From Escherichia coli (lineage in GTDB: Bacteria; Pseudomonadota; Gammaproteobacteria; Enterobacterales; Enterobacteriaceae), in the NCBI RefSeq assembly GCF_050320075.1, contig NZ_CP190018.1: 64,000 nucleotides of DNA; one strand, 5' to 3'. Of the stretch, positions 3,210 to 35,267 are shown piece after piece. The position numbers and the translations under genes are program-made. The notes under the pieces are model-generated. The model worked only from the letters and a program-made list of their open reading frames with translations, ran no database searches and had not been told where the DNA came from. The stretch's first letter is position 1, and each line of letters opens with the position of its first letter.

Positions 3210-4406
3210 TTAAGGTGCTACAGCGTGTTTGCCTTCCCAGACAACTTCGCGGTAGTGCTTCACGTCTGTGTCGCCTTCAGTGCTGATAACCAGCACTACG
3301 GCATCTTTGTTCAGCGCCAGTTTTTCCATCAGGCTTTGACGTTGCGGGTGATAATGAACCGCTGCGAGAACGCCCAAACCGACAGCGCCGGATTCACCGG
3401 AGATGATGCGTGGGTCATTGCCGTACGGGTTACCCAGCACACGCATACCTAATGCGGCAACGCTGTCCTGGCAGGAGATGAATTGGGTGGCGCAGTTACG
3501 TAGGATTTCCCAGCCCAGCGGGTTAGGTTCGCCGCAGGCCAGGCCCGCCATGATGGTGGCCATATCACCGCCAACGTTGACGATGTCGCCTTTGACGCCG
3601 GAGCGATAAATACAGTCAGCTTTGTCAGGTTCAACAATAATGCTGTGCAGATTTTGCGGGCTGTAGACGTCGACCAGATAACCCAGCACACCACCGGCCA
3701 TTGCACCGACACCGGCTTGCAGCAGAACGTGCGTCGGGGTTACGCCCATTTCACGCATTTGCTCGACGGCTTCATCTGCCAGTGTTGCGTAGCCTTGCAT
3801 GATCCAGGTTGGGATTTTGGTGTAACCTTCCCAGGCGGTATCTTGCACCACTTCCCAGCCGTGCTGCTGCGCGTGTTGCATGGTCAGGCGAACGGTATCG
3901 TCATAGTTCATATCCGTGACGATGCACTCGGCACCGAGGTTCAGAATGGCGTCAACGCGTTCCTGAGCAGAACCTTTCGGCATGTAAATCACCGCATTCT
4001 GTCCGAGTTGCTGTGCTGCCCACGCCACACCGCGCCCGTGGTTGCCGTCGGTGGTGGTCGCGAAAGTCATTTTTTCGCCGATGGCATTTTTCAGGTGCTC
4101 AAATGACAGCGTTTCGATATCAAGATGATATTTTTCGCACAATAATTGAGCGATGGCGTATGCACCGCCGAGCATTTTGAAGGCGTTCAGACCGAATCGT
4201 TTTGATTCGTCTTTGACGAGAATTTTCTTCACACCAAAAAGGTTTGCGAGATCGTTCAGCGCACAAAGCGGTGTTGGGCGATAACCAGCAATTTTCTGGT
4301 GGAACTGGCGCGCCAGTTTGGCCTGGCTTTGCGAAAAGAGCGGTGATGTTTCGCCGTTGAAAAATTTGTTATCGGCGATATCAATCTTCAATGAGAAAAC
4401 GGACAT
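3210..4406 (-). CDS. ygeX: diaminopropionate ammonia-lyase (PLP-dependent)
   Basis: 398-aa ORF; PLP beta-family fold signatures (lysine-containing motif, glycine-rich loops); size and position match K-12 ygeX/dpaL as recalled. Confidence 0.85.
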   Translation of the reverse strand: MSVFSLKIDIADNKFFNGETSPLFSQSQAKLARQFHQKIAGYRPTPLCALNDLANLFGVKKILVKDESKRFGLNAFKMLGGAYAIAQLLCEKYHLDIETLSFEHLKNAIGEKMTFATTTDGNHGRGVAWAAQQLGQNAVIYMPKGSAQERVDAILNLGAECIVTDMNYDDTVRLTMQHAQQHGWEVVQDTAWEGYTKIPTWIMQGYATLADEAVEQMREMGVTPTHVLLQAGVGAMAGGVLGYLVDVYSPQNLHSIIVEPDKADCIYRSGVKGDIVNVGGDMATIMAGLACGEPNPLGWEILRNCATQFISCQDSVAALGMRVLGNPYGNDPRIISGESGAVGLGVLAAVHYHPQRQSLMEKLALNKDAVVLVISTEGDTDVKHYREVVWEGKHAVAP

Positions 4407-12778: not shown

Positions 12779-12856
12779 TGGCGAATTAATCAGCAGTCAG
12801 CAGCGCGGCACTTGCTAAGGAGAGCGTAAGGTTTATAATGCCTTACGCATCTCGAA

Positions 12857-12930
12857 GCGGGCGTAGTTCAATGGTAGAACGAGAGCTTCCCAAGCTCTAT
12901 ACGAGGGTTCGATTCCCTTCGCCCGCTCAA
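12857..12930 (+). tRNA. glyU: tRNA-Gly (anticodon CCC)
   Basis: GCGGGCGTAGTTCAATGGTAGAACGAGAGCTTCCCAAGCTCTATACGAGGGTTCGATTCCCTTCGCCCGCTC; acceptor stem pairs, anticodon loop CTTCCCAAG, T-loop GGTTCGATTCC; 3' end reads CAA rather than CCA. Confidence 0.9.
12913..12928. repeat. attL core: 16-bp direct repeat (tRNA-Gly 3' end)
   Basis: TTCCCTTCGCCCGCTC identical to 32061..32076. Confidence 0.7.
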
Positions 12931-13094
12931 AACAAACATTTCTCAACGTCTACTGAAGTCCATCAAATCCACGAATATCAAGCCTTTCAGCCATTTTCAT
13001 AGCTTATTAACGTCTACTCACAACTACCAGAATCTACACACAGAAGTGTATAGTAATGCGTATAGGACAAAATTTATTTTTTGGAGCTATACAC

Positions 13095-14309
13095 ATGCTG
13101 CTTTCAGACCTTGCTATCAGGCGCGCGAAGCCGAAAGAAAAGGCTTATACACTCAATGACGGTAACGGGCTTTCGTTACTCATTGAGCCGAACGGCTCGA
13201 AAGGGTGGCGACTACGTTACAGATTTGCAGGAAAGCCCAAAATGTTGTCGTTGGGCGTGTACCCTGATGTGTCTCTGTCTGATGCCAGAGCGGCAAGGGA
13301 TGAGGCTAAAAGGCTTCTTGCTGGTGGTATAAATCCAAGTGAGGCCAGAAAAGCTCAAAAGCGAGAACAGGCGAGCAAATTTGGCAATACTTTTGAGGGT
13401 ATCGCTCGCGAATGGTATGAAAAGCGGATCGACAGGTGGTCATCGTCATACGCCGAGGAAATGATCGAGACGTTTGAAAAAGACGTTTTTCCGTACATTG
13501 GCGGCAGGCCGATCGCAGAAATTAAGCCAATGGAGTTGCTTGCGGTTCTCTCCCGTCTTAATGACCGTGGGGCGACCGAAAAATTGCGTAAGGTTCGCCA
13601 GCGATGCGGCGAGGTGTTCCGGTACGCAATCATCACCGGACGCGCTGAATATAACCCCGCACCAGATCTGGCAAGCGCATTTGCTCCACACAAAAAAGAG
13701 CATTATGCCTATTTGAAGGCCGACGAACTGCCGGAATTTTTCCGCGTTCTTAATACGTACACCGGAAGCCAGATCGTCAAGCTGGGTATGCGATTATTGA
13801 TTCTGACAGGGCTCCGGCCAGGGGAATTACGACAGGCAGAATGGCAGGAGATCGATTTTGATAATCGTTTGTGGGAAGTGCCTAAAGAACGAATGAAGAT
13901 GCGCCGTCCTCATTGTGTGCCGCTTTCAGAACAGGCGATCGCTATTCTGGAACAGTTAAAACACATGACGGGGCAGTATCAGTTTATTTTCCCTGGTCGA
14001 ATCCAGCACAGTAAGCCGATGAGTGAAATGGCGATGAACGTGCTTATTCGTCGTATTGGCTATTCTGGGCGCGTTACTGGTCATGGGTTCCGGCACACGA
14101 TGAGCACGATTTTACATGAGCAGGGCTATAACACCGCGTGGATAGAAACGCAGCTTGCACACGTTGATAAGAACTCAATTCGTGGCACGTACAATCATGC
14201 GCAATATCTGGACGGGCGGCGCGAGATGCTCCAGTGGTACGCCGACTATATGGACTCACTGGAACAGGGCGGCAACGTGGTGCATGGCAAGTTCGGAAAA
14301 TGTGGATGA
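13095..14309 (+). CDS. tyrosine integrase, P4-type
   Basis: ORF 13056..14309; N-terminal LSDLAIRRAKPKEKAYTLNDGNGLSL and catalytic-domain HGFRHT ... Y residues typical of P4/CP4-57-like integrases. Confidence 0.85.
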   Translation: MLLSDLAIRRAKPKEKAYTLNDGNGLSLLIEPNGSKGWRLRYRFAGKPKMLSLGVYPDVSLSDARAARDEAKRLLAGGINPSEARKAQKREQASKFGNTFEGIAREWYEKRIDRWSSSYAEEMIETFEKDVFPYIGGRPIAEIKPMELLAVLSRLNDRGATEKLRKVRQRCGEVFRYAIITGRAEYNPAPDLASAFAPHKKEHYAYLKADELPEFFRVLNTYTGSQIVKLGMRLLILTGLRPGELRQAEWQEIDFDNRLWEVPKERMKMRRPHCVPLSEQAIAILEQLKHMTGQYQFIFPGRIQHSKPMSEMAMNVLIRRIGYSGRVTGHGFRHTMSTILHEQGYNTAWIETQLAHVDKNSIRGTYNHAQYLDGRREMLQWYADYMDSLEQGGNVVHGKFGKCG

Positions 14310-15462: not shown

Positions 15463-15660
15463 ATGTCAAATACGCTTATTCGTTTAACAGAAGTTCAGCG
15501 TAGAACTGGATATAGCAAGGCATGGATTTATCGCCTTATGGGGCAAGGTAAATTTCCTGCATCAGTTAAAATTGGCTCGCGAGCGATTGCTTTCGTTGAA
15601 AGTGAAATTGACGAATGGATCAATCAGCGTATTGCCGAATCACGCGGAACGGCTGCCTGA
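15463..15660 (+). CDS. alpA: AlpA-family transcriptional regulator / excisionase-like (MerR-type HTH)
   Basis: 65 aa, LTEVQRRTGYSKAWIYRLMGQGKFP motif characteristic of AlpA/phage regulatory protein. Confidence 0.8.
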   Translation: MSNTLIRLTEVQRRTGYSKAWIYRLMGQGKFPASVKIGSRAIAFVESEIDEWINQRIAESRGTAA

Positions 15661-27645: not shown

Positions 27646-30401
27646 TGAAACAGGCATGTGTTGAAGCTATTGCGCAGACACTTGGTCGCCAGCCAAAGGC
27701 TGATGAGCTGAAAAATATCGAAGATCGTATCAAAGAAGCAGTGCAACATGTGCACAGAAAGAATGCAAAAGAAGGCAAAAGTGGTATTCCTGATGCTCAA
27801 ACATACATGGATGCTGCAGAACTGGTACGCCAGCGTGTGGTTCATGATGTGTACAAGAAAAGACAGCGTGTTGCCCAGAATGCGATCGCCATCAGTAAAA
27901 TTACTGACACTCTCGATGCTAACATCCCGCCTGATCAGCAGACACCTGTTAATTTGCAGCAGTTTATTTTTGCTGGCCGACGATCGAGAGACAAAGCTGA
28001 TATCTCCGTTGCTTCTGCTGAAGAGCTTGCAATTGGGGCATATCAGGACTGGTCCCGTCAGCTCAGTGCTGAACTTCTAAAAGCAGGTGATGACGTCCGC
28101 AAATTCTTCGAGCAGAGCAGGGCGCTTGGAGAGCAGCGGTTTCGGAGTGTATTCGACAGGCAGGCGGCAAAGTCTGCACAACTCCAGATCCTGAAAGAAA
28201 TTTATGGCGAAGATACCGGGAATCCCCTGGCGAAGAAAATTGCACAGATTTGGAAGGATGTAACAGGCCGTGTTCGTCATGAGATGAACGACAACGGCTT
28301 TGACATAGGCCTGCGAGAAGACTGGCATACGCCATATGTGGATGATGCTGACCTTATTCGCAATGCCGGGCGCGAAGAATGGCTGGCATCGTTACCAGTG
28401 GCAGAGCAAGCTACAGCACGTCTTTCAGGTCGCCAGCCACCGATTGAGTTTGCCCGCCAGAAATGGGTTGATGACGCTTACAACACGCAGGATCGCAGCA
28501 ATTACGTTAATCCTGACGGCAGCATTATGAATGACGTCGAGTACCGTCAGGCACTGGAAGCGATCTTTGAAACGAAGGCCACTGATGGGGCAAACAAAAT
28601 TGAGCCCGGTACATTTATGGGAGCCGGAGGAATAAAGAGCCGTGGTTCTCAGCACAGGGGGATGGCGTTCAAGGATGCGCAGTCACACTTCGCCTATATG
28701 GAGCGATACACTCAGCAGCCGCTGGTGGGGGTGATGATGTCGCACCTGCAATCATCATCCAGGGATTTGGGCGTCGTTAAAGCCTTTGGTCCGGACGCCG
28801 AAAGAAACTTTTCCCTGGTACTGGATCGCATCTATAAGCGCGCAGTAACAGGCGGGAAACGCAAAAAAGAAATGGAGGATGAGGCCAAATTAGTAGCCCG
28901 TATGTTCAACTCAATGGCTGGCCTAAATGGTGTCGCTTCATCGAGTGTGTTCTCTTCAGCTGTTGGTGGTCTGCGTAACCTGATGACCAGCGCCATGCTT
29001 GGCACCAGCGTACTGACAGCAACCAGCGACCAGGCAATTATGCGGGCAAATGCGCAGGCGCTGGGCTTTACCCGTGGTGGAATGCGGCTTTCCGTTAACA
29101 CTATCAAAAACCTGTTTAGTGGAGATGCCAAAAAGGCGAATGCTGAACTCGGTCTGCTGGTGGATTCACATGCTGCTGTGGTTTCGAAAATGGGCGGGTT
29201 TGACTTGTCTCGCGGCATAACTGGCTGGTTCGCAGAGAAGACACTGAAGTGGTCCGGGCTGATCGCTATGGACCGCGCAAACAAAGCGTCGTTTGGTCTC
29301 CTGATGTACAAAAACATTGGCGAGCTGACCAGAAAATTTAAGACGCTGGACGATATGAAAGGAACCGATAAAACCATTCTGGCTAACAAGGGATGGAGCA
29401 ATGAGGACTGGGCCATCATGGCAGCGGCAGAACTCAGGCCGATGACTACTGCCGGGCATATGGGGATGACGCCAGACGCGATTTACGCTGTGCCCGATAA
29501 CGTAATCGCCGACATTATGGCAGACCGTATTACCCGGATTCGTGCCGGGAGTGAAAAGGCACTGGCAGCACTTGGAGATCTCCCTCCAGAACGCCTGAAA
29601 CGGATGAAAGAAGCATTCGACGCTGAGGCTGAGCAGACCATCACGCGCATGATTCGTAATGCACGCGCTGAAGCAGCCCATAAATTGCTGGGAATTACGC
29701 ACGGTGAGATGACCAATGCTGTGACCACCGCTACGGGTATTGATACATATGCCCGTGATGATGCTGGCGAGTTAATGAAGAGCTTCATGCTCTTCAAAAC
29801 AACCCCATTTGCTGGATTTCGGCAACTTGTTAACAGAACACGGGATTTGGACACCGTTCCGGCCATTAAATTTCTGGCCTCATATATCGGGGGAACAACT
29901 CTTGCTGGTATGTTTGCGATCCAGATGAACAGTTTGTTAAATGGTAATGATCCGCTGGATATGACAAAACCAACCACATGGGTTCAGGCTTTACTGAAAG
30001 GTGGTTCGTTCGGTATCTACGGTGATTTTATTTTCCAGGACCATACGCAATATGGCTCCAGCATCGGTGCCACTATGGGTGGCCCTGTGTTGAGCTTTGC
30101 AGAGCAGTTAACAAAATTACTGATTACTAACCCACAGAAGGCTCTACAGGGTGAAGAAACATCATTCGGTGCCGATGCACTGAAAACAGCCCGCATGATC
30201 ACCCCATTCGCAAACCTGTGGTATGCGAAAGCGATAACCAATCACCTGATATTGCAACAACTTCAGGAGATGGCAAACCCTGGTTACAATGATCGAGTAA
30301 GGGACCGCGCGCAACGGGAGTTCGACATAACGAGTTGGTGGGAACCGGGTGCTATTGCGCCACGTAGAGCACCGGATTTTGGAAAGGCGGTGGGGAACTG
30401 A
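27645..30401 (+). CDS. large hypothetical protein (about 918 aa)
   Basis: ATG at 27645 overlaps previous stop (TAATG); ORF track 27624..30401. Confidence 0.65.
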   Translation: MKQACVEAIAQTLGRQPKADELKNIEDRIKEAVQHVHRKNAKEGKSGIPDAQTYMDAAELVRQRVVHDVYKKRQRVAQNAIAISKITDTLDANIPPDQQTPVNLQQFIFAGRRSRDKADISVASAEELAIGAYQDWSRQLSAELLKAGDDVRKFFEQSRALGEQRFRSVFDRQAAKSAQLQILKEIYGEDTGNPLAKKIAQIWKDVTGRVRHEMNDNGFDIGLREDWHTPYVDDADLIRNAGREEWLASLPVAEQATARLSGRQPPIEFARQKWVDDAYNTQDRSNYVNPDGSIMNDVEYRQALEAIFETKATDGANKIEPGTFMGAGGIKSRGSQHRGMAFKDAQSHFAYMERYTQQPLVGVMMSHLQSSSRDLGVVKAFGPDAERNFSLVLDRIYKRAVTGGKRKKEMEDEAKLVARMFNSMAGLNGVASSSVFSSAVGGLRNLMTSAMLGTSVLTATSDQAIMRANAQALGFTRGGMRLSVNTIKNLFSGDAKKANAELGLLVDSHAAVVSKMGGFDLSRGITGWFAEKTLKWSGLIAMDRANKASFGLLMYKNIGELTRKFKTLDDMKGTDKTILANKGWSNEDWAIMAAAELRPMTTAGHMGMTPDAIYAVPDNVIADIMADRITRIRAGSEKALAALGDLPPERLKRMKEAFDAEAEQTITRMIRNARAEAAHKLLGITHGEMTNAVTTATGIDTYARDDAGELMKSFMLFKTTPFAGFRQLVNRTRDLDTVPAIKFLASYIGGTTLAGMFAIQMNSLLNGNDPLDMTKPTTWVQALLKGGSFGIYGDFIFQDHTQYGSSIGATMGGPVLSFAEQLTKLLITNPQKALQGEETSFGADALKTARMITPFANLWYAKAITNHLILQQLQEMANPGYNDRVRDRAQREFDITSWWEPGAIAPRRAPDFGKAVGN

Positions 30402-30715
30402 TGACGAGAGATAAAATTGAATATATTGCTTCTCTTAAATATGAAGCTGAGAAATGGAGAAGGATTGGCTGGTGGGGAACATTAATATCACTCTCTGCTT
30501 TACTTATAGACTCCTGGTTCAGACATATTGATGCAGCATCATTACTTTTTGAATCAGCAGTACTTGGTGGATTCATTTGCTGTTGGGGTGGTAATTATGA
30601 TCGGGCGTCCAAACATAAGAGAGAACTTGACGCGATATGTTTTGCTTTATTCGGTAAGGATTACGAAAGTTCTGACCTTGATATAATTGAATTCAACAAA
30701 ACGGAACTATCGTGA
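30401..30715 (+). CDS. small membrane protein (104 aa)
   Basis: Start overlaps previous stop (TGATG); two hydrophobic helices (WWGTLISLSALLI, AVLGGFICCWGG). Confidence 0.5.
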   Translation: MTRDKIEYIASLKYEAEKWRRIGWWGTLISLSALLIDSWFRHIDAASLLFESAVLGGFICCWGGNYDRASKHKRELDAICFALFGKDYESSDLDIIEFNKTELS

Positions 30716-31573: not shown

Positions 31574-31978
31574 CTGTTTTGTATATATATACGAAAAATT
31601 GCATTCAGGAGGGGGGGAGCGAAATCCCTACAATCCATTGCTTATGGGACCGCCCGCCTCGTCAAATTTTTACACCCGCGAAATAAAAAAATACTTCACG
31701 CTGGTGGGCATGATGCTGATATGGGAGGCTTCCATAACGCCACCATTCGGAACTATGCAAATCTGCATAGAAAAGGGGATGCCTGATACAATACCCTCGC
31801 CCGATAAAATCACACCGATAAACTCATCTGCCACGAGTAGAAAGAGCGAACGAACCCGATACGCAGTAATGCTTGTCGGGTACAGCTTTTTAAGGCGGCT
31901 GTAGATATCAGGCCATCCGTGATCATCCACCAGCGAGATAGCCGATAACGATGACGCATAACCCTCAAGCGAGGGATA

Positions 31979-32003
31979 AATGTGTATAGAAATGTGTATA
32001 GAA
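31979..32003. repeat. tandem ATGTGTATAGAA repeats (candidate integrase arm-type sites)
   Basis: aatgtgtatagaa-atgtgtatagaa about 58 bp from attR; related gtgtatag / ctatacaca motifs near int at 13040-13092. Confidence 0.35.
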
Positions 32004-32060
32004 TTGATTTTAGAACTCGCAGGATTCGCGCTATTACTGGCCTTGTGTGATGTTGTATTG

Positions 32061-32076
32061 TTCCCTTCGCCCGCTC
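32061..32076. repeat. attR core: 16-bp direct repeat of the tRNA-Gly 3' end, followed by CA (intact CCA context)
   Basis: TTCCCTTCGCCCGCTC identical to 12913..12928. Confidence 0.7.
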
Positions 32077-33788: not shown

Positions 33789-34340
33789 TTACGCTTCCTG
33801 CTCTTTCTTGATACGTTGCACCGTCTGTGTGCTGACACTGAAATCTTTTGCTACGCTCCGAATTGATCCACCATTCGCGAGAGCGGCAGCAATTCCTGCT
33901 CGATCAATTGCTTTTCCATTACCACGTTTTGCTATACGTCCAGCGGCCTTAGCTGCGGCGATCCCTTCACGTTGACGCTCAAGCATCATTTCACGTTCCA
34001 TTTGTGCCACTGCTGCAAGCACTGTGAGCATCATATTCCCTGCGGGAGAGTTCTTCCCTGTCTTAAAGTCTTCTTTATGGAAATGCACAGACACGCCGCG
34101 CTCTGTTAATTGCTCAACCGTTGCCAGTAGGTCGGCTGTATTACGGCAAAGTCGATCAATGCTGTGAACATGCAAAACATCACCTTCCCGCACATAGTTC
34201 ATCATTGCCTCAAACTGTGGGCGCTGGGTATTTTTGCCTGACGCTTTATCTTCAAAGACTTTATCAAGAGTTACTCCAGCTAATTGACGGTCTGTGTTTT
34301 GTTGGACAGTCGATACCCTAATGTATCCAATATTAGCCAT
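33789..34340 (-). CDS. serine recombinase (resolvase / DNA-invertase family)
   Basis: N-terminal IGYIRVSTVQQNTDRQ with catalytic Ser; C-terminal HTH; ORF 33789..34346. Confidence 0.8.
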   Translation of the reverse strand: MANIGYIRVSTVQQNTDRQLAGVTLDKVFEDKASGKNTQRPQFEAMMNYVREGDVLHVHSIDRLCRNTADLLATVEQLTERGVSVHFHKEDFKTGKNSPAGNMMLTVLAAVAQMEREMMLERQREGIAAAKAAGRIAKRGNGKAIDRAGIAAALANGGSIRSVAKDFSVSTQTVQRIKKEQEA

Positions 34341-35267
34341 TTTCATTTTCCTTCTGTGTTGATTTGTGTGTAGTGATTATTGATCGTGTTGATTAGGTGT
34401 GTAAAGGACTTTTTTCACTACGAAATTCGAAGGTTTTTAGTGTGGTGATTTAGCCTGCTTTATCACTACACGTCTTGCATGAGAATCATGTAGTTACATT
34501 TTGGTAAAATTAGCAAGCTATTAAATAGTGTGTTTATTTTGAAAAAATAATTTTTTGTTGCATTAAAGGAAACTTGTTCAATAAATGATAGAACGTTTAT
34601 TGAGCAACAATTTTGCAGTGATGCGCTATATGCCGCATTACATAAGGCTTTGCTGATGATAATGTAAAAGTGAAGAAAGCTAACATTGCTCTTTTAAGCT
34701 ACTTTTCATTGAATTTTTAGTATGGAATTACATAGGGATAAACTATGAATATTCTATGATTTACACGAGATATTCTTGCTGTTTAATTCCGGCTTTGGAG
34801 ATCAGGCATTCGCAAGAATACGCTAACGCGTTGCCTGAAAAGCCATTGCACATAATAGAGGTGAGCGTATAGCGAACTATCAATGTGATCATTGCACGAA
34901 TGATAATGAGTGGATATAGATTCTATATATCGTTAGATTGTAGTTTGATAGTTAATGTGTAATGTAGATTGTATGAGCGTATAGCGAATGTTAGTTAGAT
35001 CAACAACAAACTAACCTTTAAATCTCTTTTATCTTCTCATAGATATGGCTATGCGTAGCAACCGAAGGTTAGCCAATCATCTCTATGCAGCCGTAAGGCT
35101 GTTTTGCATGTAATAGTTGTTTGTTGTTGTTAGACAGTTACCAATTTATAGATCAGAGATAGATGTGAGCGTTGAGCGATACACTAATCATAACAACATC
35201 TTCTTACTTTTTAGTTAGTTGTTAGTAGGTTATTGTTATGCGCGCTATTAGCGCATGTATAAAGGTA

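Follow-up and report, generated by a model that had tools for sequence, protein, structure and literature searches.

Five putative arm-type integrase sites at the ends of a P4-family island in the glyU gene of Escherichia coli

Results

The glyU island and its genes

By the window, we mean the whole 64-kb stretch of E. coli DNA that was analysed. It contains an island at the 3' end of glyU, and the two ends of the island are marked by a 16-bp core, TTCCCTTCGCCCGCTC, that has exactly two copies in the window (0.01 were expected). In E. coli genomes without the island, glyU joins directly onto the sequence that begins at 32061 in the window (genome sequence comparison), so the intervening 19.1 kb is an insertion with precise ends. 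The boundaries that had been proposed in a preliminary description of this DNA are borne out by that junction. The gene names that we use come partly from the RefSeq annotation of E. coli YZLc1-3, which is 100% identical to the window. The features on which the rest of this work depends are as follows.

12857-12928, + strand: tRNA-Gly(CCC) gene glyU, the integration target (ARAGORN; RefSeq annotation of the identical strain YZLc1-3)
12913-12928, + strand: attL core, the 16-bp direct repeat TTCCCTTCGCCCGCTC, which is the 3' end of glyU
13095-14309, + strand: P4-family tyrosine integrase (int), 404 aa, WP_001580988.1 (Pfam, RefSeq)
15463-15660, + strand: AlpA-family HTH protein, 65 aa (Pfam Phage_AlpA, E = 2.4e-19)
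32061-32076, + strand: attR core, the second copy of the 16-bp repeat TTCCCTTCGCCCGCTC; the island-free junction begins here

The integrase has the Pfam domains Arm-DNA-bind_3, Phage_int_M, and Phage_integrase. Arm-DNA-bind_3 (PF13356; E = 1.9e-26) covers residues 3-88 as a separate N-terminal domain, which matches the solved N-domains of CP4-like integrases (3JU0 and 3JTZ). The AlpA-family protein is a candidate for the excisionase or regulator of the island. The other island genes that RefSeq names, all of them on the + strand, encode AntA/AntB, BRO-N, Icd-like, DUF4222, DUF927 primase, SSB, ProQ, and PerC proteins, and there are three large ORFs without a recognisable family. The island has the unidirectional series of int, alpA, Bro-network genes, and a primase that PICIs have (Pfam and RefSeq), and the gene order fits the integration/Bro/replication/late plan of the Gram-negative PICI satellites (PMC10111431). 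PICIs are also characterized by captured late or capsid genes and by a helper phage on which their induction and packaging depend. No capsid or other late-gene families were recognised in the island by Pfam or, for the distal ORFs at 23054-30715, by PADLOC.

Several other features of the region deserve mention. Four successive ORFs of 843, 686, 918, and 104 aa occupy the distal third of the island (23054-30715, + strand), and none of them matched anything in Pfam or PADLOC. A diverged glyU island in strain EC2001 (L013, 10223-17592) has a trio of ORFs of similar size, which are, according to RefSeq, an SLT transglycosylase-domain protein and two hypothetical proteins; these are followed by a Rap1a/Tai-family immunity protein. 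At the right end, RefSeq has a hypothetical protein of 151 aa (WP_258796595.1; 31670-32125, - strand) that crosses the attR arm and the attR core and continues into host DNA. It is probably not a real gene: Pfam gave no match, and most of the sister islands lack this annotation. Finally, about 1.7 kb beyond attR, and so outside the island, there is a gene for a "recombinase family protein" (33789-34346, - strand; of the resolvase/invertase type, judging from its RefSeq name), which is next to yecR, on the margin of the ETT2 type III secretion region.

Five related units inside the two cores

Just inside the cores there are five copies of a short word, each of which can be framed as a 12-bp unit. 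We number them in the order that they would have in attP.

12939-13040, + strand: spacer of the attL (P') arm, with TCTAC-type direct repeats
13043-13054, + strand: P'1, putative arm-type unit GAAGTGTATAGT; holds a -10-like TATAGT at 13049-13054
13055-13066, + strand: P'2, putative arm-type unit AATGCGTATAGG; 12 bp after P'1
13086-13097, - strand: P'3, putative inverted arm-type unit (GCTATACACATG on the + strand); between the GGAG Shine-Dalgarno and the int ATG, with the ATG included
31965-32040, + strand: conserved block of the attR (P) arm, comprising the tandem pair and the flanking CAAGCG, ATTTTAGAAC, and TTACTGG
31979-31990, + strand: P1, putative arm-type unit AATGTGTATAGA
31991-32002, + strand: P2, putative arm-type unit AATGTGTATAGA; 12 bp downstream of P1, with 58 bp from it to the attR core

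On the attR side, ATGTGTATAGAA is present in tandem (31980-31991 and 31992-32003). The 9-mers TGTGTATAG within this pair are at 31981-31989 and 31993-32001, and the pair ends 57-58 bp to the left of the attR core. On the attL side, the corresponding 9-mers are AGTGTATAG at 13045-13053 and TGCGTATAG at 13057-13065, about 114 bp to the right of the attL core. Both are in the + orientation, and this pair matches the attR pair in its 12-bp period as well as in its orientation. The fifth copy is the inverted CTATACACA at 13087-13095, whose final A is the A of the integrase's ATG at 13095.

The preliminary description had pointed to motifs of this kind as candidate arm sites: a tandem pair about 58 bp inside attR, and related motifs with an inverted copy just inside attL, at the integrase start. 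Everything that it described is present at both ends, with coordinates that were off by 1-3 bp and with an inverted copy that runs 3 bp further than had been indicated. What we add is that the two pairs are co-oriented with a 12-bp period, that the inverted copy sits on the start codon of int, and that the attL arm has a second family of repeats (TCTAC).

These words are concentrated at the island's ends. Exact GTGTATAG occurs six times in the 64-kb window (both strands), as compared to 1.19 times expected from shuffles, and four of the six copies are found no more than 200 bp inward of the cores (Poisson P(>=4) = 1.3e-10), so the motif is not as frequent elsewhere. A variant, GCGTATAG, joins these four copies within about 150 bp of the 16-bp repeats. 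The remaining exact copies, at 481 and 47970, are lone singletons, in line with chance. If the motif is relaxed to RYGTATAR, then there are 18 matches in the window, of which 5 are at the island ends (P = 2.8e-8).

The repeated word, which is unrelated to the core, recurs in each arm of the attP that we reconstructed, with units at 13043-13097 on one side and at 31979-32002 on the other. The attP of the excised circle would read P1-P2, 58 bp, core, about 114 bp, P'1-P'2, about 19 bp, and the inverted P'3. The doubled motifs would be at about -78 and +134 relative to the centre of attP, which places them 212 bp, or roughly 20 helical turns, apart.

Sister islands in E. coli

Among 5,426 complete E. 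coli genomes, this integrase is present at glyU in 80, and the attR-arm block is present in 98. We compared ten glyU islands (the window, L002-L004, and L008-L014, as listed), whose cargo is widely different. All ten have the five sites, and at fixed offsets: core+133, core+145, core+174, attR core-79, and attR core-67. So the motif is not missing from the homologous elements. The alignment blocks GTGTATAGTAATGCGTATAG, CTATACAC, and AATGTGTATAGAAATGTGTATAGAA are essentially invariant over the ten islands, with single-base changes in two of them, and the flanks of the sites diverge. The divergence of the flanks is greatest in EC2001, which has the most diverged of these islands (its Int is 80% identical): the arm sequence is otherwise scrambled and the five sites are kept. 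Furthermore, the P4-like satellites of E. coli at selC (L005) and at argW (L006) have a TGTGTATAG-type word at equal distances.

The tRNA-derived sequences at the ends of these islands vary as well. In six of the ten glyU islands, the attR tRNA fragment has a 1-bp deletion (TTCCCTTCGCC-GCTCC); the affected attR cores are at 38807 in L003, 35142 in L004, 32492 in L008, 27972 in L010, and 20097 in both L011 and L012. The fragment in L013 has two substitutions instead of the deletion, and the attR of the window is intact. These changes recall the "damage" to the attR tRNA that was described for PICIs (PMC10111431). At the 3' end of the window's glyU (12927-12931), the sequence is GCTCAAAAC, and the other nine attL sites have GCTCCAAAC. 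This implies that the encoded CCA end of the window's tRNA is CAA; the attR copy retains CTCCA. Also, the argW satellite of strain uk_P46212 has about 13 GGGCT(G) repeats just inside its right end (L006 30660-30725), in a run that is about 40 bp to the left of its arm-site pair.

Related integrases in other species

To survey the family, we used an alignment of six integrases to scan genomes, one for each species. The scan yielded 80 loci, mostly from Enterobacterales, at which the integrase is 46-85% identical to that of the window and lies beside a tRNA or tmRNA gene. Upstream of int, we then looked for two features together: a tandem pair in which at least 7 of 9 positions match and the period is 12 bp, and an inverted copy with at most one mismatch. 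The pattern is present in 63 of the 80 loci, and the other 17 fail this automatic test. With strict positions (an inverted copy on the ATG, and a pair that starts 46-58 bp ahead of it), there are 47 of 80. In controls, the pattern was found in none of 500 windows from the same loci and in 2 of 1600 and 9 of 1600 shuffles. The 9-mers fall into several classes, namely TGTGTATAG/TGCGTATAG, TGGGGGTAT, TGGGGGCAT, GGGGGCC, and TGTTGGTAT.

Because most of these islands exceed the 10-kb flank that we fetched downstream, just 11 far ends in L015-L094 were open to examination: a tandem pair of the same motif was found within this flank in 11 of 64 clean loci. In the 10 of these that were checkable, what follows the pair, 56-60 bp on, is a direct repeat of 11 bp or more from the tRNA's 3' end, and this holds across motif classes. 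Overall, the distance from pair to core in the other loci is 56-60 bp in the far arm and 108-120 bp in the int arm. Our literature search found nothing on arm-type sites of P4-like integrases and nothing relevant on the glyU island. From these comparisons, it appears that the geometry of pair, pair, and inverted copy is general to the P4 integrase family rather than confined to helper-embedded PICIs (HE-PICIs), which goes slightly beyond the literature.

Which protein reads the 9-mer

The class of the 9-mer changes with the arm domain of Int. When the alignment columns of Int are scored for their mutual information with 9-mer class, the high values gather in the arm domain, at residues 5-50. 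Nine of the top 10 columns and 12 of the top 15 are within residues 1-60 (hypergeometric P ~1e-8), although some of this co-variation reflects phylogenetic inertia, as the sequences are related; the contrast between the N-domain and the rest of the protein and the discordant pairs below mitigate this in part. The leading positions are 41, 50, 31, 48, 6, 27, 10, 24, 21, 37, and 19.

Pairs of integrases with discordant parts tell the same story. In L037 and L048, the C parts of Int are 90-91% identical and the N-domains are 55-58% identical, and the 9-mers are different. L019, which also targets glyU, uses TGGGGGTAT, and its integrase is 53% identical to the window's in the N-domain and 72% identical in the C part. 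The N-domain of the selC integrase of L064 is closer to P4 (62% identical) than to the selC satellite L005 (51%), whereas its C part is closer to L005 (74%) than to P4 (40%). More broadly, motif class and target tRNA assort combinatorially: both the GTATA and the GGGGTA classes occur at glyU, three classes occur at selC, and four occur at tRNA-Arg(UCU).

At tRNA-Arg(UCU), we also noticed what looks like a clear case of the exchange of an N-domain together with its arms between elements with a common target. In the pairs L037/L048 and L033/L054, residues 91-404 of Int are 90-91% identical, the arm domains are only 55% identical, and the 9-mers are GGGGGCC versus TGTTGGTAT.

The doubled motif might be bound not by Int but by the AlpA/Vis-type protein of the island, or by another small regulator, and might act as an excision-directionality site or as an operator. 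The authors who described the doubled motif of HE-PICIs left binding by AlpA possible (PMC10111431), the alpA gene is just 1.2 kb downstream of int, and the attL copies are in the regulatory region of int. But AlpA proteins that are 80-85% identical, with identical TGYSKAWIY helix regions, are found beside different 9-mer classes (the window, with TGTGTATAG, versus L028, with TGGGGGTAT; and L013 versus L021). The class of the 9-mer tracks residues 5-50 of Int rather than AlpA, and the attL arm contains a separate family of repeats, TCTAC with 10-bp phasing, that is a better candidate for a directionality factor. We therefore consider it unlikely that AlpA or a similar regulator is the reader of the 9-mer. 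There is strong circumstantial evidence, short of proof because the compared sequences are related, that it is the N-domain of Int that the 9-mer follows, rather than the core, the target tRNA, the catalytic domain, or AlpA.

TCTAC repeats and the start of int

The spacer between the attL core and P'1 contains TCTAC at core+37, +101, and +121 (P(>=3) = 4e-5), with degenerate copies at +47 and +111. In L004, copies of (C)GTCTAC/TCTAC (20160-20260) are at core+27, 37, 47, 91, 101, 111, and 121, with exact 10-bp phasing (P(>=7) = 8e-13). P4 has GTCC/GTCT repeats in the corresponding place of its int-side arm. Because phasing by the helical turn is typical of excisionase-type proteins, with Apl as an example (PMC7498355), we propose the TCTAC repeats as candidate sites for AlpA/Vis-type proteins, or in other words for the recombination directionality factor (RDF). 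We also compared both arms to the IHF consensus WATCAANNNNTTR by eye, and as we found only partial and non-conserved matches, we do not claim an IHF site.

A scan of 12800-13200 for consensus sigma-70 promoters found the glyU promoter only, and none in 12900-13100. In a relaxed search, the best promoter-like match was ACCAGA-17-TATAGT, whose -10 (13049-13054) is within P'1 and whose -35 is poor. As nothing but this relaxed search gave a match, we treat the int promoter as putative. P4 has TTGAAA-18-CATAAT at the equivalent relative place, which is the modal position across the family.

Might the attL copies be nothing more than the context of the promoter, Shine-Dalgarno, and start codon of int, with the attR pair being an unrelated repeat? 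TATAGT within P'1 does resemble a -10, and the inverted copy does lie between the Shine-Dalgarno and the ATG. However, there is no gene start at the attR pair, yet it has the same 9-mer, 12-bp period, and orientation as the attL pair. Also, in other lineages, a different tandem pair comes with a different sequence in front of the ATG (GTACCCCCAATG accompanies TGGGGGTAT, and ATGCCCCCAATG accompanies TGGGGGCAT), which is not expected of generic translation signals. We find this explanation very improbable.

The overlap with expression signals may matter even if the units are arm-type sites. In P4, Int and Vis are reported to repress Pint by binding DNA near the start site (Piazzolla 2006, via PMC2951348 and PMC7286903). 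In KplE1 (CPS-53), the int promoter is embedded in attL, the arm and RDF sites double as operators, and both Int (IntS) and the RDF (TorI) repress int (PMC2951348). In the window, P'1 and P'2 cover the promoter-like -10 and P'3 covers the stretch from the ribosome binding site to the ATG, which makes autorepression likely: by analogy with the reports for P4 and KplE1, Int probably represses its own gene via the P' sites. We are less sure of autoregulation than of the arm sites because there is no consensus sigma-70 promoter and the -35 is poor. IntS belongs to another integrase lineage, and its P' sites share a TAAA motif (PMC2951348). We considered KplE1/IntS as a model for the argW element and rejected it: the P' motif of IntS is TAAA, and L006, whose integrase is not the same, is a P4-like satellite.

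Discussion

Comparison with known attachment sites

Repeats in the attP arms of phage P4 were reportedly described by Pierson and Kahn in 1987 (J Mol Biol 196:487). The P4 record (NC_001609) annotates 12-nt units, with the sequence TGGGGGCAT, as "attP arm sequence repeat". It has a tandem pair in the far arm (4174-4151) that is 53 bp from the core (4097-4078), a second pair on the int side (3965-3942) that is 112 bp from the core, and an inverted unit (3926-3915) that abuts an ATG. Homology supports the alignment of this ATG with the start of the window's Int. So P4 and the window are alike in having 12-nt units, in the number, period, and orientation of these units, in the inverted unit at the ATG of int, and, for both the far arm and the int arm, in the distance from pair to core (58 and about 114 bp in the window, 53 and 112 bp in P4). 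In both, int is beside attP and reads away from the core, integration is targeted to a tRNA gene's 3' end, and Int contains Arm-DNA-bind_3. They differ in the sequence of the unit (TGTGTATAG/TGCGTATAG in the window), in the target (glyU versus leuX), and in the integrase itself, which is 40% identical overall and 46% identical in the N-domain. Also, the window's element does not have the sid, delta, and psu genes of P4. P4 has a sixth repeat inside int (3621-3632), and we did not find a counterpart at the equivalent place in the window's int; TTATACAC at 13145 falls within conserved coding sequence, so it is uninformative.

Least probable of all is that the repeats are iterons of a replication origin that is bound by the DUF927 primase/helicase: the region that P4 requires in cis for replication does adjoin its attP (NC_001609) and the island does encode a DUF927 primase, but the P4 annotation assigns the ori repeats and the arm repeats to different sequence families, the 9-mers are kept in islands with different replication proteins (DUF927 in the window, a "DNA primase family" protein in L002, and a RepA helicase in L009), and neither a fixed distance from the core nor co-variation with the N-domain of Int is expected of iterons.

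The doubled motif of HE-PICIs is the other close parallel. A 2023 study (PMC10111431) found the motif tgTGTATTGCantgTGTATTGCa, doubled with a 12-bp period, at positions -81 and +132 counted from the centre of attP, or 213 bp apart, and proposed that it is bound by the integrase's arm domains or by AlpA. According to that study, HE-PICIs are the only elements with the motif, and it makes no mention of a third, inverted copy at the start of int (PMC10111431). The window resembles the HE-PICIs in its two co-oriented doubled motifs with a 12-bp period, which are 212 bp apart, in its organisation (int, alpA, Bro, and primase), and, partly, in the word itself (TGTGTAT). It differs in the core of the word, which is GTATAG rather than GTATTGC, and in the target, which is a tRNA gene rather than a late gene of a prophage. 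Of the features that define the HE-PICI doubled motif, the window shares the geometry alone: the core word TGTATTGC is absent, with TGTGTATAG in its place, and the target is glyU.

The integrase of phage lambda is heterobivalent and has five arm sites, which are distinct from the core and are split 2 + 3 between the arms; its tandem arm sites are about one helical turn apart. The window's integrase would be of the same heterobivalent type, and it too has five (putative) sites that are split 2 + 3, are distinct from the core, and in tandem lie about one helical turn apart. The N-domain family and the consensus of lambda are different, though. Also, the P' sites of lambda are three direct repeats beside a core-proximal IHF site, whereas those of the window are two direct copies and one inverted copy, are farther from the core, and overlap the start of int.

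How the sites may work

The preliminary description reasoned that arm-type sites are expected to flank the core of a P4/lambda-type integrase. This reading has gained support from the P4-identical layout, from the Arm-DNA-bind_3 domain, and from a 9-mer that changes with the N-domain of Int over 80 loci. As the sites are also non-random in their position and conserved across the sister islands, we think it very likely that the five TGTGTATAG-type units are binding sites of the arm type for the island's own P4-family integrase. By every criterion that can be applied to sequences, they belong to the class of P4-type attP arm sites. That kind of site has been known since 1987, and the new details are the sequence of the unit and the glyU target.

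By analogy with lambda and P4, we infer the following scheme for recombination. The N-terminal Arm-DNA-bind_3 domain of each Int protomer would dock on one 9-mer and the C-terminal domains would grip the 16-bp tRNA-derived core, so that each protomer would bridge an arm 9-mer and a core half-site. Bending of the DNA, probably by IHF together with an AlpA/Vis-type factor on the 10-bp-phased TCTAC repeats, would bring the arms to the core. The resulting intasome would then integrate the island into glyU or excise it.

Implications

For the island itself, the arm sites fix the boundaries and indicate that the recombination module is complete. Given that int, alpA, and both arms are intact and that the cores are identical, the island is probably still mobile. 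The geometry should also be useful for other islands with P4-type integrases: the far end can be located from two doubled motifs of 12-bp period, one about 57 bp before the core and one about 113 bp after it, even if the tRNA repeat is short or damaged. And the table of co-variation points to the residues of the N-domain that may read the 9-mer, which helps if orthogonal integrases are to be engineered. Nothing here upsets the current understanding; the generality of the geometry and the apparent shuffling of N-domains with their arms should be moderately interesting to those who study site-specific recombination or predict islands.

A broader idea, which we favor by a modest degree, is that the P4-type integrases share an "arm code" across the family. 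Under this idea, doubled motifs about 210 bp apart are accompanied by a third site on the start of int, about a dozen residues of the N-domain (within 5-50) specify the 9-mer, and N-domains have been shuffled repeatedly, along with their sets of arms, among catalytic domains with different tRNA targets. If this is true, then it would generalise the doubled motif of the HE-PICIs, and it would provide a simple rule for calling both ends of an island and for choosing orthogonal pairs of integrases and att sites.
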